Source: an uncultured Glaciecola sp. (GTDB taxonomy: Bacteria > Pseudomonadota > Gammaproteobacteria > Enterobacterales > Alteromonadaceae). Taken from it: DNA of 64,000 bases. The notes below the pieces were generated by a model. It made no database searches, was not told where the DNA came from, and saw nothing but the letters and a program-made list of their open reading frames with translations. Each line of letters begins with the position of its first letter. Within the stretch, counting starts at the first letter, position 1. Shown piece by piece: positions 30,449-45,445 of this stretch. The stretch is taken from positions 349 through 64,348 of the forward strand of contig CAZUON010000005.1 of assembly GCA_964621345.1 (NCBI GenBank), written 5' to 3'. The position numbers were made by a program, and so were the translations under genes.

Positions 30449-30880
30449 CTACCAAACGCCGTATGGTAAGGGTTTCGGTTGTTCCCTTACAAAGGTAAAT
30501 TGATATTTATTTTCCACTTGCTGGGTTATCACATCCCAGTTCAAAGCTTCAAAAGTTTGCGAAAAATTAAAACTCAAAAGCGGCGCATCAATAGAAGAAA
30601 TGTAATGCATCTGGGTATCTAAACTGCGCTGGCTTAATACCTCATATTGCTCATATTCTTTAAAACGTGTGGCATATACCATTACCTGGTTGACCTGTTG
30701 AGGAGTGAAATTATCAAATACCAAAACAAAGTCGCTATCACCTATCGCGTCATTGTTTAATATTGAATCGTTTAACAGGCTATTGGCAAATACGAGGGGG
30801 GAATAAGACAAATATACTGCCAATACTAAGCTTACAAGCACCTTGGCAGGCGAAAATCGAGAGCCTAACTGCATTGTCAT
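30449..30880 (-). CDS. Hypothetical secreted protein (last gene of the 30.4-45.4 kb cluster)
   Basis: Signal peptide MTMQLGSRFSPAKVLVSLVLAVYLSYSPLVFA. I prefer the ATG at 30880 over the TTG at 30922. No recognisable family. Confidence 0.45.
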   Translation of the reverse strand: MTMQLGSRFSPAKVLVSLVLAVYLSYSPLVFANSLLNDSILNNDAIGDSDFVLVFDNFTPQQVNQVMVYATRFKEYEQYEVLSQRSLDTQMHYISSIDAPLLSFNFSQTFEALNWDVITQQVENKYQFTFVREQPKPLPYGVW

Positions 30881-30976
30881 ATTGTGCCTAACCTCAACAT
30901 TCTGGTTTATTGCTGCCTGCAATGGTTTTTATGTTTGTGCTTTGGCAACAATATAAAGCGTAACTTGTTAGATAAA

Positions 30977-31954
30977 TTATAGACGGCAAGGCTGAGCATA
31001 GCCATCAAATATTAACCATTTACCGCTTAGTTGTCGGCCATTTAATATCATGTTTTGAATATATAAACGCCTACCAACTAGATCATATTGCCCCAAAAAC
31101 TGACTGAGCTTGGCATCTTCCAATGCATTGACTAAATTTGCCGACAGCGCGCGGTCAAAATGCAGGGGATATACCCTTATCAGAGCTTGATTAGGCGCAT
31201 AGGCTTGTTTTAATTGACGCTCTCTACTGCCCACCTCACCCGAAATGCGTCTTAATAAATGACTAGCTTGTTTAGGCATCGGCGTCAGAGGCATGAGCTC
31301 ATGACCGCCGGAGTGAGGGTTTAGAGATGCCAGACCAATACCCACGCATTGATATAAAAATGTGACCACTTGGTCGCGGATACTTGCCTGCGTTGGCAAT
31401 GAAATACTAACTTCACTATGAGAAAAATCTGCTAAAACACTGTCTATTTGCTGTTGTCTTTGAGTTTCAGTGAGGGTAGATGTAGATATCTCGGTGTTAC
31501 TGGAGCGCACTCCCTCAAGTGTTTCTTTCTCTGGGAATACATTTTTTGTATCGCTATTCACCGTACTTTGAGTGGCCGTTTCGACAACATTGCTTGGGCT
31601 TTGTTGAACTATTTTAGCGTGTATTTGTTGTGCGGAGTGTTTAAAAGAATGAGTATGTTGATTAGCATTTGACGAGGCCTGATTATCAACCGGTACAGCA
31701 GGCAACTCTACACTTACAACACGTAGCATCTTTTTATTCGCTTCGGGCATCTCAGGTGTGATAGTAGGCTTTGGTTTTAGGGGCGCTGATGTTGTTTCAT
31801 TTAGCTTCTTTGGGTCACTTTTTTCATCTAAATAGCGCTCTAAAAAGGAATCTAATATAAAAATAACTATCAGCATGGCAACACATGCAAATCCCCATTT
31901 TTTACTGAGTACACTGTGCTTAACATGCTGATAGTTTGTCGCTCTATAGAACAT
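30977..31954 (-). CDS. Hypothetical bitopic membrane protein with a TonB-like layout: N-terminal TM anchor, Pro/Lys-rich spacer and C-terminal globular domain
   Basis: TM WGFACVAMLIVIFIL, spacer TSAPLKPKPTITPEMPEANKK, a Ser/Thr/Gln-rich linker, then a roughly 150-aa C-terminal domain. The architecture resembles TonB; no TonB C-terminal motif is recognised. Confidence 0.45.
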   Translation of the reverse strand: MFYRATNYQHVKHSVLSKKWGFACVAMLIVIFILDSFLERYLDEKSDPKKLNETTSAPLKPKPTITPEMPEANKKMLRVVSVELPAVPVDNQASSNANQHTHSFKHSAQQIHAKIVQQSPSNVVETATQSTVNSDTKNVFPEKETLEGVRSSNTEISTSTLTETQRQQQIDSVLADFSHSEVSISLPTQASIRDQVVTFLYQCVGIGLASLNPHSGGHELMPLTPMPKQASHLLRRISGEVGSRERQLKQAYAPNQALIRVYPLHFDRALSANLVNALEDAKLSQFLGQYDLVGRRLYIQNMILNGRQLSGKWLIFDGYAQPCRL

Positions 31955-31973
31955 TTTTGCCTACTTTAAAAAG

Positions 31974-32618
31974 CTAAAGAGGTGTGCGTTGCAGAGCACT
32001 CAAAGCAGCAAACTGTCTTTTTTGTGCTAGATCCCGAAGCAAGGCCTGCTGCTGCAAACGTTTGTTTTGTGAACGGCGCGCAGCATCATTCACAGAGTCG
32101 TTTGCTGAGTAAAGTGCGTTGTTTGTGTTCTGCGCTTCGACTTGCACATTGTTTTGAGGTATCGCCATTAAGGATTCTTTTGATGAATCAGATATCAGTG
32201 TTTTTGCAGGCTGTAGTTTAACCACCGAACGACTTTCATTATGCTCAATGCCGGCGATTTCTGAGCTAGCGATGTGTGTAACTGACGTATCCGTAGCTTG
32301 CGACTGAGTTTTTGCCCTTGCAGGTAATGCGTTTGCTGCTCGAGCTTCCTCATTTTCACTTTTGAAAGAAGCGTTATTACCCTTGTTCTTTATAATTTCT
32401 AATTGTGCCAGCATGCTTTGCTGCGCCGCCTGCAAGTCGCTAATATCAGCCTCAATTTGTGCCAAGCTTTGCGCGGACTCCTCAGACTCAAGAGTATTGG
32501 CAATGGTACTTTGTAAAGCCGTATTTGTTGATGATGTGCGAAAGACATCTGCATTAAGAGATGACGCAACTAAGTAAGCGGCTCCCGCCAAGCTGATAAT
32601 AAAAAATAGAATTTTCAT
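31974..32618 (-). CDS. Hypothetical membrane-anchored or secreted coiled-coil protein (TolA-like composition)
   Basis: MKILFFIISLAGAAYLVASS, then an Ala/Gln/Glu-rich helical sequence. ATG at 32618 has GGAG 8 nt upstream, so I prefer it to the GTG at 32627. Confidence 0.5.
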   Translation of the reverse strand: MKILFFIISLAGAAYLVASSLNADVFRTSSTNTALQSTIANTLESEESAQSLAQIEADISDLQAAQQSMLAQLEIIKNKGNNASFKSENEEARAANALPARAKTQSQATDTSVTHIASSEIAGIEHNESRSVVKLQPAKTLISDSSKESLMAIPQNNVQVEAQNTNNALYSANDSVNDAARRSQNKRLQQQALLRDLAQKRQFAALSALQRTPL

Positions 32619-32664
32619 ATTGTTCACTCCAAATATTCGTTTGAGACGCTTGCGTAATTTAAGG

Positions 32665-33201
32665 CTAGGATTGCTCGCTATACTTCGTGCATAAAATACT
32701 GATTATTGCTCTAAACAACGTCGCAACCGGTAAACCCACAACAGTGGTCATAAAGGCCATAGAAAACTGCGCGGTTAATTGCCCAATAATCCCCTGCACG
32801 CTTTCTGGGGTGAGAGTTTGGTTCGATAAACTGCCTATCCCTAAACTGATCCCCAACAAGGTAAATGTCAGCGCAAGGGTTGAAATACCATTTGCTGCCT
32901 GTAAACCAATTTCTGCCCACAGTGCATGGCCTTTAGCCCTATATAGCTGAAATACAGAAACACTCGCTAAGGCGCTAAGCCCACTAAATAAAATAAGAAA
33001 GCTCATGCCAAACAAACGCTCAACGTGCAATAAAATATCTGCCAAGGTCATTTGCGTAACAAAGCTGACTATTGCAAGTACAATCATTGCGCTGCCAATA
33101 GCTGCGTAAGCGTATTTTGCACCTTGGCGAATATTAAGCGGAATAGACACTTCAACCGAAGCAGCGCTCGCTTTTGCATGACTGCTCTGTTGTAAAAACA
33201 T
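32665..33201 (-). CDS. Minimal MotA/TolQ/ExbB-like proton-channel family protein
   Basis: 178 aa with 4 hydrophobic segments. TFTLLGISLGIGS parallels PF(V/I)GLFGTVWGI of ExbB/TolQ, and MAFMTTVVGLPVATLF parallels EAL(I/L)ATAIGL-AAIPA. It lacks the long cytoplasmic loop of canonical ExbB/TolQ. The start overlaps the upstream stop (TAATG). Confidence 0.45.
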   Translation of the reverse strand: MFLQQSSHAKASAASVEVSIPLNIRQGAKYAYAAIGSAMIVLAIVSFVTQMTLADILLHVERLFGMSFLILFSGLSALASVSVFQLYRAKGHALWAEIGLQAANGISTLALTFTLLGISLGIGSLSNQTLTPESVQGIIGQLTAQFSMAFMTTVVGLPVATLFRAIISILCTKYSEQS

Positions 33202-33602
33202 TATCTGTAGCCTGCTGATGCACTCATTACTGAGGCAGTATCAAAGTTCACTTGATCTAGCCACTGCGCACTCGCACTGAGCTCTTTTTCTGCGCCTGCA
33301 TGCACCAAGAAGGTTAATTCGTAAGCAGAAAATGCGCGTTTGACCTGTGGGCTTTGCGACGCCATGAGTCTTTCATCTCGAATGACCATGCGTTCCATGT
33401 CGCTTAAATGGCGCTGACGCTTCTGTACTTTCGCCAAACGCTCCTCAAAGGCTAAGTCTGCACTTAACATATCGTTAATTAAGGCCGAACGTTCACGTTC
33501 TAAATTGTTCAATGAAAGCGTGTTGTCTTTAGCAGAAGCACCTGTGATCATGCCTATACATAGTGCTGCACAAGTTAAGCTTTTTATAGTATTGAGTTTC
33601 AT
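33201..33602 (-). CDS. Hypothetical periplasmic helical protein
   Basis: 133 aa. Signal peptide MKLNTIKSLTCAALCIGMITGASA. Charged helical sequence. Confidence 0.55.
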   Translation of the reverse strand: MKLNTIKSLTCAALCIGMITGASAKDNTLSLNNLERERSALINDMLSADLAFEERLAKVQKRQRHLSDMERMVIRDERLMASQSPQVKRAFSAYELTFLVHAGAEKELSASAQWLDQVNFDTASVMSASAGYR

Positions 33603-33660
33603 ATTAGTGCCTTTTTTATATTGATAGCTTCGTCGGTGATGTCTTTATCACGAAGGGTAA

Positions 33661-34560
33661 TTAAAGAAATAAATCAACAGATTTGGCCGGTGTCGTCATC
33701 GGTTGTGCTAACACGTCGCCATCAAGCTGCTGGTCACTTATTGCGTATTCCAAAGACTGCGCATCTAGCGCGACGAGTTTAGACATATAACTGAGCATCA
33801 AACCCTCTTGGTCAAGCAATGACTGCTCACTAGAGGCCTGAATTAATAGTTGTCTGATGTATTCTTCGGTACTGACTTCAATGCCGTCCACCGTTGCCGC
33901 CATGCTGGCCTGATGAGAGCTAATGGCTGTTTTTAATTGCTCAATTTTTGCTAAGTTCTTGGCAAATTCATCAGCATAAGGACTCTGCGCGGTATAGCCT
34001 TGCGCCGAAATGGTTTCATCCACTTGTGCCATGACTTTTTCCATACGCTGGCGAGCGGCTTCTTGTTGTTGTTTGAGGATGAACTTTCCTTCATTTTGCT
34101 GGCGATTAGCAGCTTGATACATTTTTTCGAGTACGTTTTGATACACGTCGATTTTTTGGTTAAGTGCATCTTGACGCAGTTCATGGCCTAATTGCATGTC
34201 ATCCAAAAAACTAGATTTCAGCTGCACCAAACTGACTTTTTCATCAATCATTTCGTTATCGCCAGAGCTAGCTACTAATTCTTGTACCGCTTTTATTTGA
34301 CTACTTTGCTCGCCAATTGCCTGCTCTAAACTGAGTAACTGTGACGCCATTGGAGACATATTAAAGTCTTGCTGAATACGTTTTTCAATTAGATTCGCTG
34401 GTAGCTCAATTAATGATTCTGCAGACACGGGCTGCCAGTCATGGTGATCGCTTTGTTGACTAGCGGTTGTAAAGGCGTTGTTTGCAAATGCGGTATTGAT
34501 GCTCGCTGCTAACATGGTCATCGCCATAAAACGGGTAATGTGCATTTTTGAAAAGCGCAT
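33661..34560 (-). CDS. Hypothetical periplasmic coiled-coil protein
   Basis: 299 aa. Signal peptide MRFSKMHITRFMAMTMLAASINTAFA. Long Gln/Glu/Leu-rich heptad-like stretches. Confidence 0.6.
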   Translation of the reverse strand: MRFSKMHITRFMAMTMLAASINTAFANNAFTTASQQSDHHDWQPVSAESLIELPANLIEKRIQQDFNMSPMASQLLSLEQAIGEQSSQIKAVQELVASSGDNEMIDEKVSLVQLKSSFLDDMQLGHELRQDALNQKIDVYQNVLEKMYQAANRQQNEGKFILKQQQEAARQRMEKVMAQVDETISAQGYTAQSPYADEFAKNLAKIEQLKTAISSHQASMAATVDGIEVSTEEYIRQLLIQASSEQSLLDQEGLMLSYMSKLVALDAQSLEYAISDQQLDGDVLAQPMTTPAKSVDLFL

Positions 34561-34624
34561 ATTAGTGATCCTCTTATCGGTGAATAAAGTCGCTGATGTT
34601 GATTACAAAGCTTGAATAAAAACG

Positions 34625-35170
34625 CTATTGCAAAGACCATTGGCGAGCACGCTGTAATTCAGAGCGCAATGTTGGGTTGATGTTAAGCATCGCTAATTGT
34701 CGGTTTGACAACTTGCTATCAAGCAGTGCAGTGGCGGTATCAATAAAGGAGGTATAATCGTCAAACACAAGATCTTGTTGCGCAAAACGCTGCCTGAATT
34801 CATCTAGCGAAGCTTGTGCCATCTCGAGATGACCGCTTTTTACGTAGTTCACTACTGCAATCGCGTTTAACTGCATGCCCAGTTCATTGTCAGGATGTGT
34901 AGGAAAAAATCGAATGTTGTCGATGCATCTATTAGCTTGATTGGCTAAGGCCATAAAATGTGCTGGACTTGCAGAAGTCCGCACCGCCTGCTCTCGCTGA
35001 TTAACCTGTTGCGAACAACTGTTATCGATACGCTGACCAAGCGAGTAGGCTTGCTCTACTGGCGCAGTTCGCGTCTCGTTAGTGCTCGAACAACCCGCAG
35101 CAGCAAAACATGCTAATGCGCCAATATATAGATGCTTTAATTGAGTATTGCTAAACATATTCATCCCCAT
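34625..35170 (-). CDS. Hypothetical lipoprotein
   Basis: Lipobox-like ACFAAAGC|SS after a hydrophobic region. The true start may be the third ATG at 35158 (MFSNTQLKH...), which has GGGGA upstream. Confidence 0.6.
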   Translation of the reverse strand: MGMNMFSNTQLKHLYIGALACFAAAGCSSTNETRTAPVEQAYSLGQRIDNSCSQQVNQREQAVRTSASPAHFMALANQANRCIDNIRFFPTHPDNELGMQLNAIAVVNYVKSGHLEMAQASLDEFRQRFAQQDLVFDDYTSFIDTATALLDSKLSNRQLAMLNINPTLRSELQRARQWSLQ

Positions 35171-35261
35171 TCGTTTGTTATAAATGGCTATGAAACGTTT
35201 AGGGGATTTTTTTAATTATCTTAAAAATTTATTTTAACTTTTTATTTTTAACTTTTTAATA

Positions 35262-36020
35262 CTACTTTTCTAATGTGGATTCGTTGACCACTGCGTTATC
35301 TTCAGCGTTCAGCTTCGCGTCAACTTCTGCAGCAAGCCTCTGCGTTAATTGAGGCACTATGTGCGTAAAGTCTTTGTGTAGGTAATGGTATAAAGACTCC
35401 TCACCTATATCTTGAGAGTGCCACATATCTTGTTTTGCCAAGAGGGTGTCGTCAATTAACACCTCACTTACTGCAATGGCATCCACTCGGCCATTGAGAA
35501 ATAAATTGAAAAGTAATTTTCGCTCAGACACTTCAAATAAAGGTACCGATACCTCTCGTTTTTTTAATAAGTTTTGCAACCCCACAAACCCTGACACCGT
35601 TGCCAATTGCGTAATCGTCTCCAAACTACAATCACCGCAGCGCTCAGAATTGACTAAGAGCACAATTTTAAATCGTTTTAACGCAACGGGTATTTGAATC
35701 AAGCCTTTTAACTTAGGTTGATTTACACGTGCCATTAAGCCTGACAAACGACCTTCAGTCGCTTCCACATAGCTTCTTTTTAGCGGGTGGTTGATGTACG
35801 TTACTTCGTAACCTAAGGAATGGTAGGCAGTTTCTATCGTATGTTGAACATCTTGATGAAAATCCAATGCCGATAACTTATCAAAATATACGTGTTTATC
35901 TTCTGAATTTTTATTTGTTTTTAGTGGCTGAAAGTGAGGTGGCTTTGGTGGCATACAAAAAGCTGCGCACGCAAGCTGCAACAATGTAATTATCAAAACA
36001 AACTTTGATGATGTGTTCAT
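35262..36020 (-). CDS. Secreted protein, possibly type-2 periplasmic-binding fold (SBP family 3-like)
   Basis: ATG at 36020 has GGAGG 5 nt upstream; the track's GTG at 36047 is rejected. Signal peptide MNTSSKFVLIITLLQLACAAFC. It has the general P-x-R / GRVD pattern of orphan solute-binding-like proteins. The family call is weak. Confidence 0.4.
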   Translation of the reverse strand: MNTSSKFVLIITLLQLACAAFCMPPKPPHFQPLKTNKNSEDKHVYFDKLSALDFHQDVQHTIETAYHSLGYEVTYINHPLKRSYVEATEGRLSGLMARVNQPKLKGLIQIPVALKRFKIVLLVNSERCGDCSLETITQLATVSGFVGLQNLLKKREVSVPLFEVSERKLLFNLFLNGRVDAIAVSEVLIDDTLLAKQDMWHSQDIGEESLYHYLHKDFTHIVPQLTQRLAAEVDAKLNAEDNAVVNESTLEK

Positions 36021-36131
36021 ATGCCCTCCATAATTATATTCGAGCACTGAGTAAGACAGAATAAAACTGTTTAAAATTTCATCAGCAGTTAAATTAGCAT
36101 AATTACCAGCAATTTTGTGAAATCAATTTGG

Positions 36132-37484: not shown

Positions 37485-37487
37485 TAA

Positions 37488-38081
37488 TTAAAAGGTCACG
37501 TAAAGGTGGGCGTTAATATTAGTTAATTGCGCAAAATGATCACTGTGTGGCTTCATCAAAGCAGAGAACTCACCCTGCTGGTTTGCCTCATTCAGTATAA
37601 CAACCCCTATTTCGTCATCGGTCTCACTGTGCAAGTAAGCCTGCTTTGGCAATACGCGCGCGCCACCTGTTAAATCATGGTCAAAAACAGGGTTGTGCAA
37701 GGTCATATTAACCTGTGCGGTATCATGCTCAATAATTTTCATGCTCAGGGTAAATCTCTCATCTTTTCGCTCAAAGGCATGCTCATTGGTACTGGCCGCA
37801 ATTTGTCGAGGGCTTTGTAAGCGCGCAATTTGCTTCAAAACAAAACGATACTTACGCCGATAATCTATCGATTGGTTAATGATACTTAAGTGTTCGTTAG
37901 ACGCAAGCGCTTGTGGCTCTCTCACGCAGTGCACTATGTCGGTAAAGCTCAATTTTCTACTTAAGCGTTTACCTTCTATTGTTAAGCGCTGGGCACCTCG
38001 TAATTGCTCATATTCTTGCAAAGCAATAAAGACTTGTTCATCTATGGGCGCAGTCGCCCTTGGTGTATAGGTCTCACTCAT
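37488..38081 (-). CDS. Hypothetical cytoplasmic protein
   Basis: 197 aa. ATGA start/stop overlap with the upstream gene. No TM segment and no recognisable motif. Confidence 0.55.
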   Translation of the reverse strand: MSETYTPRATAPIDEQVFIALQEYEQLRGAQRLTIEGKRLSRKLSFTDIVHCVREPQALASNEHLSIINQSIDYRRKYRFVLKQIARLQSPRQIAASTNEHAFERKDERFTLSMKIIEHDTAQVNMTLHNPVFDHDLTGGARVLPKQAYLHSETDDEIGVVILNEANQQGEFSALMKPHSDHFAQLTNINAHLYVTF

Positions 38082-39739: not shown

Positions 39740-41967
39740 TGTGCAATCCCCATATTGTAGATGGGTGAATATTGCTCAATGCGAATGTGTTGATGCTTCC
39801 ACTTAAGCTCACAAGGCAGTACAAGCGGCACTTGTCCATGCAACACTTCATTGTTGTAGGTAATAGGATTATTAAACAGGTGTTCGTTTTCGGCGCTACT
39901 CAGTGGTATTAAGCTGGCATGAGTCCCTAAGACGATTTTAGCTAGCACGATATTATTTCTATTTTGCATCGCATCTACTTCGCTTACCAACATAATCGCG
40001 TCGGTATGGGAATCTACTGCCAATACAAAGTGTGATTGAGTTAAGGCTAAAGATGACCGCATCGCGCTCACGTAATCAGGCCAAGCCTTTGCTAAATCGG
40101 TAATATCCAGTGTATGTTGAAGTTGTTTTTGTATCCTTAAATGAAGCAATGTATGACCCGAATCTATATCGACCTTAAGCTTTACTGCGTTTATTTCAGA
40201 GTTGGCACCTAAATAAATATAATCACCGTTGTGCAAAGGCTCTTCCAGAGTTAATAGCGCCTTTGACTGCAAAAAACTACCATTTTTGCTCTGCTGATCT
40301 TGTATGTAAAAGGCGCCATTGTGCATACTTACTCGGCACTGCCCACCAATACGAGAAAGCGCTTTATGATTAATGGGGAACTCAATTGTGTTGTCTGCCA
40401 CACTGAATGACGAATGAGCAAGCGCTGTGCTTGCGCGGCCTATTTCTGCGGCCTTACTCGTACTAACTAAGCAAGTATTGCCCGTTAACAGGTCATTCAA
40501 AATTACCTGATGGTGCGCTTGTGCAAAATCGATATTAATTTTGTGAATTAAGCGCTTAATTGCCTTATGCTGACGCTTCAGCTTTTTTTCTCCAGCACTC
40601 GCTTCTAAGGCTTGATATGCCTGACGTAGAGCCTTAATAGGTTGCTTACGGCGATAGTTATTCATCGCTTTAGCAACTTTATTACGAACCCATTGCTCTT
40701 TATCACTTAAGGCTTTTTGATTTGCCTCTTGCTTTGCGATTTTGTTCATCAGCGTCTTTGCTTGCACTGCATCGCTATTTAAGTTTAGCGCTTTACTGAT
40801 AAATAACTTTGCTGTGGTGTGATCTCCCGCTTCGAAAAACATACTGGCTTGCTTCTCTAAATCATTCGATTCACGCTGTAATCTCTGCCAGTAAGAGCCC
40901 TGGTTGCGCCACTGTGTTTGTAAAAAGAACCAAGGTGCTTTTGCCCTGTTGTAAATATCTAGCCATTGTGTCACCGCTTTTTTTTCTGCAAGCGCTTCAA
41001 GTTGATAATGATATACCTGCCTTTTTATCAATAGAATAACCAAAGCCACTGCAATACATACAAACAGCAAAGTATTAAGTAATGAGGGGGTATATGGGCT
41101 GCCAATACGAGTGACCACAAAGGCCTGCTCTGTTTGCTGATACTCATTTACAACATCAATATTCTGATCTTGGAAAAACCGTAACAGTAAATGATTAAAC
41201 TGCGACTCTGTTAAGCTCGAAGTCACCGCGAATTGCGTTTTAACTGTCGGTAAATAACGTGACCATACACTGGCCTCTTTTTCACTGCTTGTTAACTGCA
41301 GGCTGGTATCTAGCGTTTCTGATAATACAAAGCTTGCAAACGGCGCCACTTCATCAAGAGCAAAGCCTTTAAGCAGCAAAGTAAAATCGTTATGTTTGGG
41401 GCTTTGTTGAAGGCGCAGGCTAATCACCCGCCCCATATCTTTAGACAAACTCTTTACTTGTCTGCCACTGATGTTATTTAAATTGCCGCCTAATACATTT
41501 AAAGTGAATGAGTCGTAAGTTTGAAATGATACTGGGTCAATCAGTGTTGCACCCAAAACATATTCATTTTGTCTTAGTGCTAAATGATAAAATAAAACCA
41601 ATTCGACTTCAGGAGCCTCATTTGCCACTTTTTGTAAAAGCGCTTGCTTGCTTTGCATCGCGCATAAATTTTGCTCACATGTTGCAAATACTCGCTCGGG
41701 GGCAATGGGCGCATACATTGCCCTACGAAGCTCCCCACTAATCCCCTCTCTAATGGCAATAACAAAACTCGAATCTGCAATAACCTGTGTTGAGTTTGAT
41801 AGGTTTATATCATCATGCAAAGGGATATCGGGGATGAGCATTATCTGCCATGTGCTAGCTTCGACACGGCCTAGGGCAGCAAAAAATAAACAAGCCATTA
41901 GGATTATCGCTTGTCTAATTGTTAATGTTTTAGGTATTCTCAACCTTGTTTTAATCGCTATTCTCAC
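39736..41967 (-). CDS. Bitopic membrane protein: periplasmic N-terminal domain, TM, cytoplasmic helical/TPR-like region and C-terminal FHA domain
   Basis: 743 aa. GTG start overlaps the kinase stop by 17 nt. N-terminal signal/anchor IILMACLFFAALGRVEAS. Second TM LLNTLLFVCIAVALVILLI. FHA-like AEIGRAS...ALSRIGGQCRVSMHNGAFYIQDQQSKNGSFL...LHNGDYIYLG. Confidence 0.6.
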   Translation of the reverse strand: MRIAIKTRLRIPKTLTIRQAIILMACLFFAALGRVEASTWQIMLIPDIPLHDDINLSNSTQVIADSSFVIAIREGISGELRRAMYAPIAPERVFATCEQNLCAMQSKQALLQKVANEAPEVELVLFYHLALRQNEYVLGATLIDPVSFQTYDSFTLNVLGGNLNNISGRQVKSLSKDMGRVISLRLQQSPKHNDFTLLLKGFALDEVAPFASFVLSETLDTSLQLTSSEKEASVWSRYLPTVKTQFAVTSSLTESQFNHLLLRFFQDQNIDVVNEYQQTEQAFVVTRIGSPYTPSLLNTLLFVCIAVALVILLIKRQVYHYQLEALAEKKAVTQWLDIYNRAKAPWFFLQTQWRNQGSYWQRLQRESNDLEKQASMFFEAGDHTTAKLFISKALNLNSDAVQAKTLMNKIAKQEANQKALSDKEQWVRNKVAKAMNNYRRKQPIKALRQAYQALEASAGEKKLKRQHKAIKRLIHKINIDFAQAHHQVILNDLLTGNTCLVSTSKAAEIGRASTALAHSSFSVADNTIEFPINHKALSRIGGQCRVSMHNGAFYIQDQQSKNGSFLQSKALLTLEEPLHNGDYIYLGANSEINAVKLKVDIDSGHTLLHLRIQKQLQHTLDITDLAKAWPDYVSAMRSSLALTQSHFVLAVDSHTDAIMLVSEVDAMQNRNNIVLAKIVLGTHASLIPLSSAENEHLFNNPITYNNEVLHGQVPLVLPCELKWKHQHIRIEQYSPIYNMGIAQ

Positions 41968-44458
41968 GCTTAACCAATCTAAACCCTGTGGTAGTTGACC
42001 GCGCCGTTTTTAGCAAACGAACCATAGGTCTTTGTGCTATCTGTTGTTTTTCATCTCGCCATGAACCGCCCACCACCGGTGCTTGGTCACATCTTTGGCG
42101 TTTAAGTTTGACGTCTTGCCAACAGTCTTGCAACCATTCTTGTGCATTACCATAAACGTGATACAAACCACGAGAAGACGGCATAAGGCTATTAACTGCT
42201 ACACTGCTTTGCGCGCCATCAGACGACCCTAAACCCTGACGATGCTGTGCTAAACAATTTTTACAATGAAGGGCGTCTGGCCAATCTGCCACGTTTGGGC
42301 TTTTATATGCAAAATTAAGCCAGGTGGCCATGCTAGGCAGGCTAAATTCGCTTTGCAAGTAATTGTTAATAAAAGGGATAAAGTCTTCTTGAATATCAAA
42401 CCAACTAACATTTACGACCGGGTGCTGCGGATGATTGAGCCGCTTTCGTATATCGCTGGTACTGTTAATTCTTACGCTTCTACATTGCCCCGCATTGACA
42501 CAAGCTTGCCATAGTTGCTGACTGACCTCTGTACTCATTACAAATATTGATGCGGCAGCTTCATCGCTATCGATTGCGCCCTCACTAGAAAAAGACTTAA
42601 TTTTACGAAATTCAATCGGGATGACTTGTTTTGTTTTTACATCAATCACCTCGTATTTTAGCACCTCTGCTTGCGCCGAAAACGTATTATTTTTTGCTAG
42701 AGCAAGCACGTCTTCAGAACTATCGTCCTTAAACTGTGCTGGTGTTGTATCGTTTCTTAAACTTGATATGTAGTCACGGTCGATGACAGTTGTTTGATTT
42801 GGGTAGTCGGCGTCTACTCCCTTTGGCTCGCCAGTGTGCAAAGCATTTTGAACAAGCTTCATTTTCTCGGAGTTTGTACTTGTAATCTCAACACTGTCTC
42901 TATTCTCTTCATAATCGTTGAGTACAAAATACTGTAAGCTCAGAGCAAAGATAATGAGGCAAGCGGTAATGACAGCAATCGTTTTTGTTTTTCCGAAAGC
43001 TGACTTCTTCGCTTTTCCCTCTAGCGCTCCATTTGAATCCACTATTTTAAAATTACGCTCAACACATGCGCAGAGTTGCTCCCGAGTGCCCGCATTTGAA
43101 CTTAGGCCTTGTTCTAAAAAAGTTGCGTATTGAGTTTTGCTCAGCGTGTTATCTTTACCTTGTTGGTAGTGCTTTAATGCTAATGTCCATGCTAAAAATT
43201 CTTTATAATTTGCGAGATTATTCGAATATGCGTTTGGGGCACGAGAATCTGCGCTACTAAGATCATCAAGCGCTTCATCAATGAGGCTTTGCACCACTAA
43301 ACTCGCGCCTTCAATTTTGTTATCTAAAGCGTGTGTTTTTGCCAGCGCTGAAACATCGAACTGGGCAAGGTGGCCATCAAGTTTTAACCGTTCAACAATA
43401 TCGAACTTGAGGTTTTTTAGAGGTTGGCTAAGTGCGCTATTGTGCGAGAATGCTTGGGTAGCCTCTATGTTTGTATCGGCGTTTAGTTGTGAGTCATGTA
43501 GGGATGATTCAGCTTTGTTAGCATGAGTATCTGGTGAGTTCTTTTGATGCAAATACTCGTTATCCGTACTCACCGCTTCAGTGAAGGCCTTAATTAAAGC
43601 ATCTGCACTTGTATAGCGTTGCCTGGAGTCGCGACTCAAACCAGTTTTCAATACCGCTTTTAAAGTGGGCAACTGACACAGTGTTTCATTGCTTTGCAGC
43701 GAATCGCCGGCAGTTTTGTCGGCATTAAGCACCTGCCCACATATTATTTTAAAAGCCAAAGAACAAAGACTATAAATATCGCTGGCAATTGTTAGCTGCA
43801 ATACTCCCTCTGCTTGCTCCGGACTCATATAGGCTGGAGTGCCGCTTCGCTCTGGAACAGGGCCAGTAAATTTCTCACTTTCCAACTCAACTACCGAGGC
43901 ATAATCAATCAACAGCCATGTTTGCTCATCTGTATTTGTAAGGCTGTGCATTAACATAATGTTGTTTGGGCTAATATCTCCATGAATGCGCTTTTGTTTG
44001 TGTAATAAGGTTAAAGGCAAGGCAAGTTGCTTTAAAATATGTGAGCAAAAGCTCATACGTTCAGGGAGCGGCGCATCATAGGATGATAAATATTGCTGAA
44101 GGGTTTGCGCATAATAGGGCGTAACAAAATACGGGAATGGACCAACACGTCCCTCAAAGGTGATGCGATGGTCAAAGCCCTCATCTTGTAGAGCTTTAAT
44201 GTATTGTATTTCGCGCTCTATGCACTTAGTACCCTTTGCAGATTGGGCAATTTTAAGCGCGTAATACGTCTTATCTTTGTCACTTTGAAGCTGATACACA
44301 GCACTGTCTGCGCTCTCATAAAGAGCGCGTAAGATACGATAACCTTCTATGTGAATATTACTGTGCGTCATAACATGCTTGTTAATGATGTGCCGCATTG
44401 CTACATGGCATTGCCATTGCTTTGACACAATATTGCTCGAGTAATAACACTTATGCAA
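41951..44458 (-). CDS. Transmembrane Hanks-type Ser/Thr protein kinase with a C-terminal extracytoplasmic FGE/SUMF1 (formylglycine-generating-enzyme-like) domain
   Basis: Kinase motifs YYALKIA (Lys), REIQYIKAL (Glu), IHGDISPNNIML (catalytic loop, HGD not HRD), LIDYASV (DFG position) and GTPAYMSPEQ. TM IAVITACLIIFALSLQYFVL. FGE motifs HPVVNVSWFD, SLPSMATW, GLYHVYGNAQEWLQDCW, VVGGSWRD and TTGFRLV. The track start is a TTG; ATGs at 44398 or 44371 are alternatives. Confidence 0.85.
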   Translation of the reverse strand: MHKCYYSSNIVSKQWQCHVAMRHIINKHVMTHSNIHIEGYRILRALYESADSAVYQLQSDKDKTYYALKIAQSAKGTKCIEREIQYIKALQDEGFDHRITFEGRVGPFPYFVTPYYAQTLQQYLSSYDAPLPERMSFCSHILKQLALPLTLLHKQKRIHGDISPNNIMLMHSLTNTDEQTWLLIDYASVVELESEKFTGPVPERSGTPAYMSPEQAEGVLQLTIASDIYSLCSLAFKIICGQVLNADKTAGDSLQSNETLCQLPTLKAVLKTGLSRDSRQRYTSADALIKAFTEAVSTDNEYLHQKNSPDTHANKAESSLHDSQLNADTNIEATQAFSHNSALSQPLKNLKFDIVERLKLDGHLAQFDVSALAKTHALDNKIEGASLVVQSLIDEALDDLSSADSRAPNAYSNNLANYKEFLAWTLALKHYQQGKDNTLSKTQYATFLEQGLSSNAGTREQLCACVERNFKIVDSNGALEGKAKKSAFGKTKTIAVITACLIIFALSLQYFVLNDYEENRDSVEITSTNSEKMKLVQNALHTGEPKGVDADYPNQTTVIDRDYISSLRNDTTPAQFKDDSSEDVLALAKNNTFSAQAEVLKYEVIDVKTKQVIPIEFRKIKSFSSEGAIDSDEAAASIFVMSTEVSQQLWQACVNAGQCRSVRINSTSDIRKRLNHPQHPVVNVSWFDIQEDFIPFINNYLQSEFSLPSMATWLNFAYKSPNVADWPDALHCKNCLAQHRQGLGSSDGAQSSVAVNSLMPSSRGLYHVYGNAQEWLQDCWQDVKLKRQRCDQAPVVGGSWRDEKQQIAQRPMVRLLKTARSTTTGFRLVKRENSD

Positions 44459-44516
44459 ATAGCTTGCCTATAAGCATTTGAAACAAATACGCAATTTCAA
44501 TAAGAGGCTTATTGTA

Positions 44517-44930
44517 TTAATCAGGCATATTGAGCAAAAACTTTTGCTCCCACTGCGATACTTTCATTGCTATGGTGTCGGTTGTGCTAGTACCCTCTTT
44601 TGCAGCTTGCTCGCGGGGCAAGTGCTTAGTCGTTGCACCAGCAGTGAAGCGCAATGCATTATGCATTTTCAAAGCCGACAAGGTGTTTTTGTGTTCCAAG
44701 GCTTGATGAGCATTGCTACTTGCCAATGCATATGGCATTTGTTTAATAATTTGCGTACTTTGTCGTTCAGCGCTCTCAAGCGTATCTAGCTCAATCAATA
44801 GTTGCAGTAAAATAATAAAAAGCAAACCCAGCAACAGCATAATAACAAGCGCTACGTAACTTCTTTTTTTTATCCGTTTATTATTGCTAGAACTATTATT
44901 TGTCGAATAACCGTTGGTCGAATTACGCAA
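44517..44930 (-). CDS. Hypothetical single-pass membrane protein (weak call)
   Basis: 137 aa with a TTG start. Asn/Ser-rich N terminus, KRIKKR, then TM YVALVIMLLLGLLFIILLQLLI. Same strand as the cluster, 8 nt after the upstream stop. Confidence 0.35.
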   Translation of the reverse strand: MRNSTNGYSTNNSSSNNKRIKKRSYVALVIMLLLGLLFIILLQLLIELDTLESAERQSTQIIKQMPYALASSNAHQALEHKNTLSALKMHNALRFTAGATTKHLPREQAAKEGTSTTDTIAMKVSQWEQKFLLNMPD

Positions 44931-44938
44931 AATGATAC

Positions 44939-45445
44939 CTACTTTGTTTGCTGTGAGTAAGATTTTGTTTTAAAGGCTTGTTCCCAATTCTGATCCATAG
45001 CGGTAATTTGCACGGCCTTATGGGCAAAGTCTTTGTGAACTTGCATGACCTCAGCAAAAGAGAGGTTTGGTAGTACTGCGACAACGGTTGTTTTATCAGG
45101 ATCGACATTGCTAGGTGAGTGCTCAACTAAGGCAGTATCGTAATAGCTACCCTCATAATAAAAAATAAAGCTTATTTGCTCTTGTACTACTGGGCTTGAA
45201 GATAGCTCTTGTTGCGTTGTTTTTGAAGCTTGTTCTGCCAAACTGAGCCTGTTTTGTGCCTGCATTGCTTGGGTGTTTTGGCTCTGCTCTGTTGTCGCCA
45301 GATCTGATATCTGCTCACCGGTCATTGACAAAAGTGCAAGGATCAATAAAGAAAAAAATGCCATAGACAAACCTAGGGCTACTTCAGTCATTGCTTGCGT
45401 ATTGTTATCACTCGCTGTATTTATAGATTTCATTAGTTGTCTCAT
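44939..45445 (-). CDS. Hypothetical single-pass membrane protein, possibly an ExbD/TolR-like stator partner (first gene of the cluster)
   Basis: 168 aa. QAMTEVALGLSMAFFSLLILALLSM has an acidic residue just before or inside the TM, as in ExbD/TolR/MotB. The C-terminal ISFIFYYEGSYYD...TTVVAVLPNLSFAEVMQVHKDF...VQITAMD loosely resembles the ExbD periplasmic domain pattern. Confidence 0.4.
   Translation of the reverse strand: MRQLMKSINTASDNNTQAMTEVALGLSMAFFSLLILALLSMTGEQISDLATTEQSQNTQAMQAQNRLSLAEQASKTTQQELSSSPVVQEQISFIFYYEGSYYDTALVEHSPSNVDPDKTTVVAVLPNLSFAEVMQVHKDFAHKAVQITAMDQNWEQAFKTKSYSQQTK

Follow-up and report, generated by a model that had tools for sequence, protein, structure and literature searches.

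A phospho-signalling-associated envelope gene cluster of Glaciecola, possibly representing a previously undescribed system of marine Alteromonadales

Introduction

The described bacterial systems closest to the gene cluster reported here are the Tol-Pal (TolQ-TolR-TolA-TolB-Pal) and Ton (ExbB-ExbD-TonB) systems, the T6SS threonine-phosphorylation pathway (PpkA-PppA-Fha1, TagQRST) and Zorya. Single components also resemble Lon (MEROPS S16) and the 'Proteo1' family of bacterial Ser/Thr kinases. Proteo1 kinases consist of a kinase domain, a transmembrane (TM) segment and a C-terminal FGE-sulfatase domain; the survey describing them covers kinase architecture only and reports neither a function nor an associated gene system (bioRxiv 10.1101/2025.01.12.632604).

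The cluster occupies positions 30449-45445 of the window, a 64,000-nucleotide stretch of a contig from an uncultured Glaciecola sp., and contains 15 minus-strand ORFs, g01-g15 (Table 1). Its part list is similar in outline to those of Tol-Pal and Ton: g12 is a small polytopic protein of the inner membrane whose polar TM helices are conserved, g01 crosses the membrane once and has a conserved acidic residue at the cytoplasmic TM end and a small periplasmic domain, g13 and g14 are membrane-anchored proteins in which a long variable linker precedes a C-terminal domain, g10 and g11 are soluble periplasmic proteins, and g09 is a lipoprotein. An ATPase is encoded neither by those systems nor by this cluster. 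However, significant homology to PF01618, PF02472, TonB_C, TolA, TolB or OmpA/Pal is absent, the candidate A and B genes (g12 and g01) lie 12 kb apart, g12 is without any cytoplasmic domain, and the cluster adds a g05/g06 platform, a Lon-like domain, a kinase and an FHA domain.

The likeness to the T6SS pathway lies in a TM Hanks kinase with a periplasmic sensor together with an FHA protein, both encoded among the genes for the envelope machine that they presumably control, and in the lipoprotein, the periplasmic accessory proteins and, in the Paraglaciecola variant, a PP2C phosphatase. In contrast, the cluster contains no T6SS core gene of any kind, the protein that carries its FHA domain is anchored in the membrane and has a periplasmic domain of its own (in Colwellia the FHA domain is fused to the Lon-like domain), and the sensor is an FGE-fold domain, not vWA. 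Zorya shares the concept of a divergent MotAB-like membrane unit combined with cytoplasmic proteins of otherwise unknown fold, and ZorA is among the Foldseek matches of g12, but no ZorA-D model matched the 10 proteins scanned with PADLOC, the long ZorA tail and nuclease or helicase effectors are absent, and the genes show chromosomal vertical inheritance, not location in defence islands.

About 110 residues of the g07 N-terminal domain align with Lon, including the Ser-Lys dyad and a downstream xxVPxxN motif. Compared with Lon and the ATPase-less Lon-like proteins (BrxL, YcbZ/LonH, YlbL-type), g07 lacks AAA+, PDZ and a Lon_C match, and its Lon-like domain is N-terminal in a membrane-anchored protein bearing a periplasmic domain. 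The domain architecture of g03 matches that of Proteo1 (bioRxiv 10.1101/2025.01.12.632604).

Results

Gene organisation and family searches

The first-pass annotation, made from the sequence alone, had described a fifteen-gene same-strand envelope cluster with at least 12 envelope products. All 15 ORFs were recovered at the coordinates given there, and on re-reading, every junction it described was confirmed: the 17-nt overlap of g03 and g04, the ATGA overlaps of g04/g05 and g05/g06, the 3-nt gap between g06 and g07, the TAATG overlap of g11/g12 at 33201, and the 19-nt gap at 31955-31973. The two largest gaps, of 84 nt and 91 nt, flank g08. A hydropathy scan and inspection of N-termini assigned 13 of the 15 products a TM segment, a signal peptide or a lipobox, leaving only g05 and g06 as cytoplasmic-looking. 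The gene set is bounded by unrelated housekeeping genes.

Table 1. Features of the cluster, with positions in the window
Feature	Position	Strand	Length (aa)	Description	Basis
g01	44939..45445	-	168	N-terminal TM (22-40), then small periplasmic alpha/beta domain	hydropathy
g02	44517..44930	-	137	single-TM protein (TM 28-46), poorly conserved	hydropathy, ortholog search
g03	41951..44458	-	835	Hanks Ser/Thr kinase, TM, periplasmic FGE-sulfatase-fold domain	Pfam, hydropathy
g04	39736..41967	-	743	two-TM FHA protein	Pfam, PDB profile, hydropathy
g05	38078..39739	-	553	cytoplasmic, mostly helical	AF2 model, homolog clusters
g06	37488..38081	-	197	cytoplasmic, translationally coupled to g05 (ATGA overlap)	gene order
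g07	36132..37484	-	450	N-terminal Lon (S16)-like domain, TM 265-283, periplasmic C-terminal domain	hhalign, hydropathy
g08	35262..36047	-	261	secreted protein between modules	homolog search
promoter match	35231..35259	-		sigma-70-like, upstream of g09	9/12 consensus matches
g09	34625..35170	-	181	lipoprotein	signal peptide and conserved Cys
g10	33661..34560	-	299	secreted helical periplasmic protein	cross-locus comparison
g11	33201..33602	-	133	secreted periplasmic, translationally coupled to g12 (TAATG)	gene order
g12	32665..33201	-	178	four-helix inner-membrane protein, candidate minimal MotA/ExbB-type channel	AF2, Foldseek
g13	31974..32627	-	217	N-terminal TM anchor, linker, C-terminal helix	hydropathy, alignment
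g14	30977..31954	-	325	N-terminal TM anchor, linker, C-terminal domain	hydropathy, alignment
g15	30449..30922	-	157	secreted protein	HMM, hhalign

Across the cluster, Pfam, NCBIfam, PADLOC (10 of the proteins) and PHROGs returned only generic kinase, FGE and FHA matches. Three domains are recognisable, Pkinase and FGE-like in g03 and FHA in g04, and the proteins are named 'hypothetical protein' in every source. Pfam, NCBIfam and other family searches detected no ATPase in any variant examined, and no OmpA/Pal-like, TolB-like, TonB_C or outer-membrane barrel component was found. These generic matches, together with a g05 that has no structural neighbour, agree with the earlier statement that the cluster maps to no described system.

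Conservation and gene order

The genes are found together, in several orders, at over 25 independent loci, so the arrangement is not accidental. All except g08 (14 genes) recur in Glaciecola and Ningiella, and most of these recur, reordered, in Colwellia, Paraglaciecola and unassigned metagenome contigs. One metagenome contig is labelled as an Acidiferrobacterales MAG and is probably mis-binned. Two modules can be distinguished, A (g01-g07) and B (g09-g15), in four arrangements: colinear; interrupted, with module B separating the kinase from g05; divergent; and split. The modules are neighbours in three orders, namely the Glaciecola type, the Colwellia type (B inside A) and the divergent pair of the L022 type, and are at separate loci in Paraglaciecola. 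The module that the kinase accompanies is A in Glaciecola and B in Paraglaciecola, and g01 paralogs occur with both modules. Co-conservation of the two halves, on which the reading as one cluster depended, was thus borne out by three joined arrangements and one gene fusion. In many species the chromosomal location and the housekeeping genes on either side are shared, indicating vertical inheritance and not defence-island mobility.

Signalling and Lon-like proteins

In g03, the Pkinase (Pfam, E=2.8e-16) and FGE-sulfatase (E=2e-18) domains are separated by a TM segment at 494-512, with the kinase cytoplasmic and the FGE-sulfatase-fold domain periplasmic, as the first-pass annotation had proposed. 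Translation probably begins inside the ORF, at the ATG of residue 30. Conserved kinase features comprise the catalytic Lys, the HxD..N loop and the DFx Asp, and a search for the Cys pair after the GGSW motif of the FGE-like domain found none; this domain is predicted to be non-catalytic. In Colwellia and Paraglaciecola, the g03-type kinase additionally bears a peptidoglycan-binding domain.

The g04 protein consists of an N-terminal signal/TM, a periplasmic domain some 260 aa long, another TM and a cytoplasmic part with a helical TPR-like region, the FHA domain (Pfam E=5e-7; PDB profile matches down to 1.9e-5) and a C-terminal domain. It had been described as ending in an FHA domain; the domain itself was recovered, but at residues 509-587 of 743 and not at the C-terminus. 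The pThr-binding residues G510, R511, S538, R539, N562 and G563 are invariant. Residues 189-288, within the periplasmic domain, have a paralog in g15 (hhalign P=2e-4). Sel1 repeats take the place of the FHA domain in Paraglaciecola g04, and a fusion in Colwellia joins g04 and the g07 N-domain in one polypeptide. A PP2C phosphatase, earlier noted as missing, is indeed absent from this cluster, but the Paraglaciecola version encodes one, and in L024 it completes the signalling triad.

The N-terminal domain of g07 is cytoplasmic and without an ATPase module, and its periplasmic C-terminal domain bears a conserved Cys pair. Aligned with the protease domain of E. coli Lon (sequence confirmed to be that of PDB 1rr9), the N-domain gave hhalign P=0.001 over 112 columns, with a score of 28.5 against 12.7+/-2.3 for 150 shuffles (about 7 SD above), none of which reached it. 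S81 and K132 of g07 correspond to S679 and K722 of Lon and are invariant in 17 orthologs, supporting the Ser/Lys pair recognised earlier in this bitopic protein. Searches of Pfam (including Lon_C) and of PDB with HMMER gave no match, so the prediction of a Lon-like Ser-Lys protease domain rests on one profile-to-sequence alignment and on residue conservation.

Other module A proteins

For g05, the AF2 model is confident (pLDDT 80.8), and Foldseek against PDB and BFVD returned no structural neighbour (best E=0.2, TM<=0.14). Its homologs form only 16 clusters among 5.8 billion proteins, with no match in Pfam, NCBIfam, PADLOC or PHROGs. It is the signature protein of module A, and its model corresponds to no known fold. 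In all variants g06 follows g05, and family searches gave no match for it.

The g01 protein was found in every variant of the system. D13, T20, E21 and the entire TM segment are invariant in 16 orthologs, E21 being an acidic residue at the cytoplasmic end of the single TM segment. In L024, where the modules are split, a g01 paralog adjoins module B. Orthologs of g02 are restricted to Glaciecola-type loci; its position is taken by an SLT lytic transglycosylase (Pfam 4.5e-26; L014, L018 and L022) in three lineages, Paraglaciecola, Colwellia and the L022 variant, where SLT is an integral member, as in other wall-crossing machines.

Module B and the module junction

The g08 protein has no homolog in any related locus, and in L003 and L005 unrelated DNA is inserted at the same module junction; g08 is a strain-specific insertion and probably does not belong to the system. 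The promoter match upstream of g09 may mean that module B is transcribed from there as a second unit, but is weak evidence because the region has fewer promoter-like sites than shuffled sequence.

In all orthologs of g09, the signal peptide is followed by a conserved Cys (lipobox AAGC, ASGC, TAGC or ISAC) with no Asp at +2, and g09 is probably an outer-membrane lipoprotein. Its identity across loci is 39-72%, and it has a weak BamD-like match (E=0.007). The most conserved member is g10 (50-84% identity across loci), whose C-terminal end is almost invariant in the alignment (...DLFL-COOH); it is represented by 272 clusters, all of Alteromonadales-like source and none with a Pfam domain, and a PDB profile search was empty. 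The g11 gene is invariably directly upstream of g12, and g13 comes after g12 in all variants. A variable Q/S-rich linker in g13 precedes a conserved C-terminal helix (KRLQQQALLRDLAQK...), and in g14 a variable P/T/Q-rich linker precedes a conserved C-terminal domain that spans some 150 aa. The earlier description of g14 as TonB-shaped holds for its TonB/TolA-like outline but not for homology, since family searches gave no TonB_C or TolA match. The g15 protein is a short member of a periplasmic family of about 300 aa, paralogous to the g04 periplasmic domain, and its HMM matches proteins of about 300 aa in L012, L014, L017, L018 and L021.

Evidence for an ion-driven part

The AF2 model of g12 (pLDDT 84) has four long helices in a MotA-like topology, with TM3 and TM4 near-invariant and rich in Thr/Ser/Gly/Pro. 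Among the top 50 Foldseek matches in PDB, 33 are PomA, MotA, ZorA, TolQ or ExbB chains (A subunits of 5:2 motors), with no single match significant (best E=0.22, TM<=0.38). Sequence and profile comparisons gave no significant link of g12 to MotA/ExbB/TolQ (Pfam MotA_ExbB, E=0.069; ExbB/TolQ profile, hhalign P=0.023) or of g01 to ExbD/TolR/MotB (ExbD/TolR profile, hhalign P=0.099; Pfam ExbD matched by 1 of 16 orthologs, E=0.11). A family HMM of 120 g12 members retrieved just 159 relatives among 1.84 billion representatives. Known A/B motor pairs are nearly all encoded adjacently, whereas other genes separate g12 from g01 in the window.

The first-pass annotation had assigned g12 as a MotA/TolQ/ExbB-like channel and g01 as a possible ExbD/TolR-like partner. 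Neither was established, the weak Foldseek matches being the sole positive result for the channel, and the proposed PMF-energised machine is therefore not established either. The topology and TM3/TM4 of g12, the dominance of motor chains in Foldseek, E21 of g01 and the g01 paralog beside module B are suggestive of an ion-driven part, in which g01 is a candidate ion-binding 'B' subunit, ExbD/TolR/MotB-like by shape only.

Discussion

Our best reading, held tentatively and at somewhat below even confidence as a whole, is that the cluster is a previously undescribed envelope system of marine Alteromonadales, forming a new phospho-gated trans-envelope complex that is possibly ion-driven.

It is rather unlikely that the genes instead serve envelope-stress signalling and regulated proteolysis without a motor, with kinase/FHA and g07 as a transmembrane cascade and g12 and the periplasmic proteins as sensors or scaffolds. 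The sole confident functions are indeed signalling (kinase, FHA, PP2C in L024) and proteolysis (the Lon-like dyad), and the motor assignment fails every significance test. However, both the kinase and the FHA domain are absent from L022 and from the Paraglaciecola module A, which keep the remaining genes, indicating that signalling is an accessory layer. In addition, a transcription factor, sigma/anti-sigma pair or other obvious output is lacking in every variant, and a lytic transglycosylase with six or seven periplasmic/lipoprotein parts exceeds usual sensor needs.

Less probable still is a new secretion or surface-structure assembly apparatus, in which g05/g06 would be the cytoplasmic sorting platform for an exported or anchored substrate (protein, polysaccharide or vesicle) encoded elsewhere. 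The parts are those of a trans-envelope assembly, including an SLT enzyme, a lipoprotein and a novel-fold cytoplasmic platform, and are under Thr-phosphorylation control as in T6SS, which is consistent with this, but the variants examined lack an ATPase, secretin, outer-membrane barrel, pilin, glycosyltransferase or candidate substrate gene.

Zorya-like anti-phage defence appears improbable. Here a motor-like g12/g01 sensor, with wall contact through SLT or peptidoglycan binding, would respond to phage-induced envelope damage and switch on g05, g06 and the Lon-like g07 as effectors in the cytoplasm. The best g12 Foldseek matches include ZorA chains, g03-related kinases are present in defence models (mad6, PD-T4-6), and BREX also includes a Lon-like protease. 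Against this, PADLOC matched only a generic kinase domain in the 10 proteins scanned, no match was found in PHROGs, viral contigs or plasmids, nuclease, helicase, NTPase or NADase domains are absent, and the shared chromosomal site points to vertical inheritance; the phage-sensing role offered earlier as an alternative is accordingly disfavoured.

That two unrelated operons merely lie side by side in this genome is very improbable: the 84-nt and 91-nt gaps, promoter-like site and strain-specific g08 between g07 and g09, the unrelated DNA at the junction in L003 and L005 and the separate Paraglaciecola loci favour it, but it is largely refuted by co-localisation kept through rearrangements, with modules adjoining in three gene orders, a kinase that switches module between Glaciecola (A) and Paraglaciecola (B), and g01 paralogs beside both.

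Under the preferred reading of a phospho-gated trans-envelope complex, module A (g01, g02 or SLT, g04, g05, g06 and g07) would form a cytoplasmic platform on the inner membrane, made of the novel-fold g05, g06 and the membrane-tethered, ATPase-less Lon-like Ser-Lys domain of g07, and tied to periplasmic domains via g01, g04 and g07, all three of them anchored in the membrane. Module B (g09-g15) would span the periplasm with g12, the linker proteins g13/g14, the helical g10/g11/g15 and the lipoprotein g09. The periplasmic FGE-like domain of g03 may sense an envelope or peptidoglycan-related cue, upon which the kinase would phosphorylate threonine on a system component. The FHA domain of g04 would read the pThr and assemble or activate the g05/g06/g07 platform, with proteolysis by the Lon-like domain as a possible irreversible switch. 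The platform would then control module B, where g12 and g01 may act as a minimal ion-conducting unit, and energy or force would be sent across the periplasm to the lipoprotein end, in a Tol-Pal/Ton-like manner, for envelope remodelling or maintenance. As judged from gene order and chromosomal position, the system is kept together in marine Alteromonadales and appears to be vertically inherited.

Architecture and Boundaries of the Cluster

Fifteen ORFs of 133–835 aa each, numbered here g01 to g15 from the highest coordinate to the lowest, lie on the minus strand of the window, and the short gaps and overlaps described for them in the first-pass annotation were all present in the sequence. The genes for g03 (kinase/FGE protein) and g04 (FHA protein) overlap by 17 nt, as re-read from the sequence, ATGA overlaps join g04/g05 and g05/g06, the g11/g12 junction reads TAATG, and gaps of 3 nt and 19 nt separate g06/g07 and g13/g14. 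The gaps bordering g08 (84 and 91 nt) were larger than the others described. By a hydropathy scan with inspection of the N-termini, 13 of the 15 products carry a TM segment, signal peptide or lipobox, in line with the earlier claim of at least 12 envelope-located products, and only g05 and g06 look cytoplasmic.

The cluster is flanked by genes encoding an HGSNAT-type acyltransferase (other strand), an RNase J-like protein, a GGDEF/EAL protein, an S9 peptidase and an ABC transporter, and since these are unrelated housekeeping genes, the boundaries were placed at g01 and g15. The GGDEF/EAL protein (1556 aa, with Reg_prop β-propeller repeats and PAS) is encoded 2.5 kb downstream and is probably unrelated to the cluster, because its adjoining position is conserved only in the closest relative (L001). 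In a promoter and terminator scan of the region, promoter-like sites were fewer than in shuffled sequence, so that the scan was uninformative; one such site lies near the g07–g09 junction.

Coordinates of the cluster and of features in the window and in related loci (L numbers)
Feature	Sequence	Coordinates	Strand
Fifteen-ORF cluster	window	30449-45445	minus
g01	window	44939-45445	minus
g03, longest ORF	window	41951-44458	minus
g08	window	35262-36047	minus
Promoter-like site	window	35231-35259	
g10	window	33661-34560	minus
g15	window	30449-30922	minus
GGDEF/EAL protein	window	23285-27955	minus
RND efflux pair at g07–g09 junction	L003	13496-17847	opposite
Unrelated small ORFs at g07–g09 junction	L005	13700-18000	
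Broken g05 and g06	L017	9971-11971	
g07/g04 fusion	L018/L019	14943-17837	
g12/g14-like pair	L020	3963-7986	
DUF4384/faint CsgG-like gene	L021	2746-3822	
DUF4384/faint CsgG-like gene	L022	17531-18747	
PP2C and tandem kinase/FGE genes before g09	L024	1814-8035	

Conservation and Gene Orders

In a scan of one genome per species, 17 loci were found in Glaciecola, Ningiella, Paraglaciecola and one Acidiferrobacterales-labelled contig. A metagenome scan added six more, and neighbourhoods of g12 relatives led to Colwellia and more distant contigs. Gene orders were obtained by running HMMs of each family against all loci. The genes are best described as two modules, A (g01–g07) and B (g09–g15), a division drawn from these orders.

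Gene orders in related loci
Type	Gene order	Remark
(i) Glaciecola-type	g01-g02-g03-g04-g05-g06-g07, then g09...g15	at least 12 loci
(ii) Colwellia	g01-SLT-(g15-like, 300 aa)-g03-g09...g14-g05-g06-(g07 N-domain fused to FHA-bearing g04)	
(iii) L022/L023	g09-g12 and two genes; other strand g07-(154 aa)-g05-SLT-g01	no kinase/FHA
(iv) Paraglaciecola, split, locus one	(g15-like)-(g04-like, Sel1 repeats replacing FHA)-g01-SLT-g05-g06-g07	
(iv) Paraglaciecola, split, locus two	(g04-like with FHA)-PP2C-two kinase/FGE-g09...g14	g01 paralog beside g14

The modules are united in three different ways, with shared paralogs, and the kinase is exchanged between them. Three lineages have an SLT lytic transglycosylase as an integral part of the set, and in Glaciecola the poorly conserved g02 occupies its place. 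Independent occurrence of the two halves had been named beforehand as the outcome that would break up the system; the halves proved to be co-conserved and joined in three arrangements. That the two modules adjoin merely by chance is thus scarcely credible, being contradicted by their rearranged co-localisation.

The earlier view of all fifteen genes as one system did not hold for g08, a unique 261-aa secreted protein (GC 0.40). It is best read as a strain insertion, because it has no counterpart in any related locus and because the same junction holds unrelated DNA elsewhere: L003 has an RND efflux pair there, and L005 a number of unrelated small ORFs, some of them transposase-like fragments. 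Between g07 and g09, where the modules meet, lies an insertion hot spot that is probably also an operon boundary.

Several loci deviate in detail. In Paraglaciecola aquimarina KCTC 32108 (L017), g05 is split over three ORFs of 102, 142 and 312 aa and g06 over two, which suggests frameshifts or decay of module A in this strain, or errors of assembly. Next after g07 in the same locus comes a YdbH-like intermembrane lipid-transport gene. In L020, a distant g12/g14-like pair lies amid IS21/IstB, DDE transposase, DNA methylase and DUF4928 genes; the pair represents a copy that was disrupted or else a mobile setting for part of module B, and this was the sole hint of mobility seen. The same system with Glaciecola-type flanks was seen on contigs labelled Acidiferrobacterales (L007), Kangiellaceae or Alphaproteobacteria (proteins P0038 and P0039); these odd MAG labels probably reflect errors of binning or taxonomy and not a wide host range.

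Family Searches across the Cluster

Among all 15 proteins, Pfam recognised Pkinase and FGE-sulfatase in g03 and FHA in g04, the rest being below threshold. NCBIfam (all 15 proteins), PADLOC and PHROGs (10 proteins each) added nothing but generic kinase matches, and in PADLOC these concerned g03 only, with none for the other nine proteins of a set that comprised all but five small periplasmic proteins. No recurrent family was found by Pfam in 51 orthologs of the small proteins, and no AAA/P-loop match in g07 or elsewhere in the cluster. HMMER profile searches of the PDB with the g12, g01, g07, g04 and g10 families returned FHA matches only. In public sources, all cluster proteins are named 'hypothetical protein'. 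All-against-all hhalign comparison of the cluster families revealed a single paralogy, between the periplasmic part of g04 and g15; this part is also paralogous to a ~300-aa periplasmic protein of other variants.

The Kinase and FHA Proteins

The kinase, FGE-type and FHA domains named in the first-pass annotation were all recovered by Pfam. For g03, the matches were Pkinase (E=2.8e-16) and FGE-sulfatase (PF03781, E=2e-18), and K69, D161, N166 and D185 (catalytic Lys, HxD..N loop and DFx Asp) are conserved in 11 orthologs; the protein accordingly has the Hanks-type Ser/Thr kinase fold with its catalytic residues. In the longest g03 ORF, the TTG start lies 29 codons before an ATG (MTHSNIH...), and the real protein is probably about 806 aa, because orthologs align only from about this internal ATG.

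In the FGE domain of g03, no Cys was present in the segment after the GGSW motif in any of the 11 orthologs, where we take the catalytic Cys pair of a true FGE to lie (C336/C341 in human SUMF1). A formylglycine-generating enzyme was therefore rejected: the fold is there without the Cys pair, and the domain would instead serve in periplasmic binding or sensing.

The FHA domain of g04 was matched by Pfam (5.4e-7) and by a PDB profile search that returned 43 FHA structures (best 1.9e-5). Its pThr-binding residues G510, R511, S538, R539, N562 and G563 are invariant and H534 nearly so, and g04 thus has the FHA fold with its phospho-threonine-binding residues conserved. A kinase survey lists the kinase-TM-FGE architecture in its 'Proteo1' family, with no function given, and reports that kinases of this family may instead carry DUF4384 at the C-terminus (bioRxiv 10.1101/2025.01.12.632604). 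Genes with DUF4384 and faint CsgG-like matches adjoin distant versions of the system (L021 and L022), which may hint at how the g04 and g15 periplasmic domains fold.

The reported lack of a PP2C phosphatase held for the window but not for every related locus. In L024 (uncultured Paraglaciecola), PP2C and two tandem kinase/FGE genes precede module B, one of the latter also carrying PG_binding_1, and a phosphatase therefore exists in the wider family of the system. From residue conservation and gene content, the kinase/FHA layer, with PP2C in some lineages, is functional-looking and is dispensable in some lineages.

The Lon-Like Domain of g07

The conserved part of the 450-aa protein g07 is the N-terminal ~190 residues, in which G79, S81, W82, H90, A112, G114, K132, P155 and N158 are invariant in 17 orthologs. 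HMMER searches with g07 against Pfam Lon_C and the PDB were negative. By hhalign, the g07 family profile was aligned to the E. coli Lon proteolytic domain (sequence confirmed identical to PDB 1rr9) over 112 columns with P=0.001, S81 being aligned to Lon S679, K132 to K722 and the xxVPxxN motif to LIPFEN of Lon. The score was 28.5; 150 shuffles of the Lon sequence gave 12.7 ± 2.3 (highest 19.6), and its reversal gave 10.0.

The Lon S16-like Ser/Lys pair proposed earlier for this protein is thus in register with Lon and invariant in 17 orthologs, and we accept a Lon (S16)-like domain with intact dyad; catalytic activity would follow by inference. The domain comes without an ATPase module and is anchored in the membrane through a TM segment (265–283) that precedes a periplasmic domain with a conserved Cys pair. 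A LonA/LonB holoenzyme was rejected, the AAA+ module being absent. In the Colwellia MAG and a metagenome contig (L018/L019), a 964-aa fusion protein contains the g07 Lon-like N-domain and most of g04 including FHA, a Rosetta-stone arrangement that ties the Lon-like domain directly to the FHA protein.

Candidate Motor Proteins g12 and g01

The AF2 monomer of the 178-aa protein g12 (pLDDT 84, 120 homologs used) contains four long helices with MotA-like topology. Its TM3 and TM4 hardly vary between homologs and abound in Thr, Ser, Gly and Pro, with T112, T114, S119 and P158 invariant and T152 and T153 nearly so. Of its best 50 Foldseek matches in the PDB, 33 were PomA, MotA, ZorA, TolQ or ExbB, none of them individually significant (best E 0.22, TM at most 0.38). 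The match to Pfam MotA_ExbB (PF01618) had E=0.069 and 13.3 bits against a cut-off of 22.9; such a match was obtained for just 2 of 10 orthologs and for no member of a further 10 from the family, and a transitive link through distant family members failed, as none reaches PF01618. When 1.84 billion representatives were searched with an HMM of 120 g12 relatives, only 159 proteins scored at E≤0.001, and the family is therefore small. Three g12 orthologs are named 'MotA/TolQ/ExbB domain-containing' in UniRef, a name that the current Pfam model does not reproduce.

Profiles of ExbB/TolQ (15 sequences) and ExbD/TolR (12 sequences) were built from genes of ten plasmid loci. In hhalign, g12 matched the former over 27 columns without significance (P=0.023); against small ExbB2-type proteins P was 0.42, and a relaxed alignment put the conserved motifs in register. 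Comparisons by hhalign of g12 and g01 with E. coli ExbB, TolQ, MotA, ExbD and TolR were not significant, and the PDB profile search with g12 was empty.

For g01, E21 (with D13 and T20) is invariant and directly precedes the single TM segment (22–40). In MotB, ExbD and TolR, an essential Asp occupies the corresponding position. No significant match was obtained to either Pfam ExbD (PF02472; E=0.11, in 1 of 16 orthologs) or the ExbD/TolR profile (P=0.099). The two candidate genes lie at opposite ends of the cluster, 12 kb apart; where the modules are split, a g01 paralog adjoins module B, seen only in L024, convergent just after g14.

For the first-pass proposal of a MotA/ExbB-like channel, the topology of g12 and the make-up of its Foldseek list speak in favour and the profile scores against; for the ExbD-like partner, the acidic residue before the TM segment speaks in favour and the profile scores against. 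A relation of g12 and g01 to MotA/ExbB and ExbD is a plausible but unproven analogy that falls short of family membership, and the ion-motor element of the best explanation is doubtful.

Other Envelope and Platform Proteins

For the 553-aa protein g05, a set of 5.8 billion proteins yielded only 16 clusters. Its model, a confident one (pLDDT 80.8), is helical with one small three-stranded sheet, and Foldseek found no neighbour in the PDB or BFVD (best E 0.2, TM at most 0.14). The most conserved protein is g10, secreted and helical, with 50–84% identity across loci and 272 clusters, all from Alteromonadales-like sources; the PDB profile search with it was empty. Its homologs end in a nearly invariant ...(V/A)DLFL-COOH, which could be a docking peptide, for example for a TPR/PDZ-type partner such as the lipoprotein g09.

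g09 has a conserved lipobox Cys with no Asp at +2 and, under the Lol rule, should be a lipoprotein of the outer membrane. g13 and g14 are each anchored at the N-terminus, continue in a variable low-complexity linker and close with a conserved helix or domain; the TonB-shaped protein described before can be recognised in their TolA/TonB-like outline, but not in domain content.

Comparison with Described Systems

In its part list, the cluster is closest to Tol-Pal/Ton. Membership was rejected, since no TonB_C/TolA C-domain, TolB β-propeller or Pal OmpA-like lipoprotein was found in cluster proteins or orthologs and g12 and g01 are not adjacent in the window. In regulation, the closest analogy is the T6SS threonine-phosphorylation pathway; kinase and FHA are present, but no T6SS core family was matched by Pfam or NCBIfam, and this candidate was likewise set aside. 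The earlier statement that T6SS core, OmpA/Pal and TolB are missing agrees with these searches. ATPase-less Lon-like proteins are the closest analogy of g07.

Zorya is a further analogy, through a divergent motor combined with unassigned cytoplasmic proteins. A Zorya-like defence system is nevertheless very improbable, as the genes occupy a fixed chromosomal site, their housekeeping flanks are conserved across species, and neither defence models (apart from generic kinase ones) nor PHROGs, searched with 10 proteins each, nor plasmids and viral contigs gave a match; membership in any catalogued anti-phage system was rejected on the same grounds.

The literature on the combination of parts held nothing relevant apart from the kinase survey and a MotAB evolution paper (background), so that neither it nor the family libraries contradicted the first impression that no known system is recognisable. 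Because the defining features of the closest systems were not found, save the generic kinase, FHA, FGE-fold and Lon-dyad features, we rate the system, as judged from sequence, as outside every described kind. More sensitive searches (HHpred, AFDB) might tie single parts to known families.

Proposed Working and Alternatives

The tentatively preferred reading is a phospho-gated trans-envelope complex in which a platform controls module B. A periplasmic cue would bind the FGE-like domain of the kinase g03, in some lineages also with a peptidoglycan-binding domain, and the FHA domain of g04 would read the phospho-threonine mark. g04 would then assemble or activate a g05/g06/g07 platform, with Lon-like proteolysis as a switch, and the platform would control module B, spanning the periplasm to the lipoprotein g09. 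As in Tol-Pal/Ton, ions flowing through g12/g01 might supply module B with energy.

A fuller version, a new trans-envelope machine with a reduced 5:2-type motor (g12 without cytoplasmic domain, plus g01), a novel-fold g05/g06 platform with a membrane-anchored, ATP-independent Lon-like protease and an FHA-read Thr-phosphorylation switch, is unlikely as a whole. A pure signalling and regulated-proteolysis pathway, which would draw on the kinase, FHA and Lon-like parts, also seems unlikely; the cluster set includes a wall-cutting enzyme (SLT, in some lineages) and neither an ATPase nor a transcription factor. A new secretion or surface-assembly apparatus, its substrate encoded elsewhere, is more improbable still.

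Significance

Eleven of about fourteen proteins are without a detectable family and at least one is without a known fold. A machine with such a reduced motor, if real, would add a fourth functional branch to the ion-driven envelope motors, next to Mot, Ton/Tol and Gld/Zor, and would be possibly the most reduced relative of the MotA/ExbB motor, bearing on motor evolution and on minimal periplasmic force transduction. It would also be a natural case of Ser/Thr-kinase–FHA control of an envelope machine outside T6SS and a new context for ATPase-less Lon-like domains. Even without a motor, genetics and cryo-ET have a clear target in this gene set, conserved as it is through repeated rearrangement. 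The system is confined to a single group of marine bacteria; on the preferred reading, a whole family of heterotrophs common in the sea, among them Glaciecola, Paraglaciecola and Colwellia, would carry an undescribed multi-protein complex that spans the envelope.
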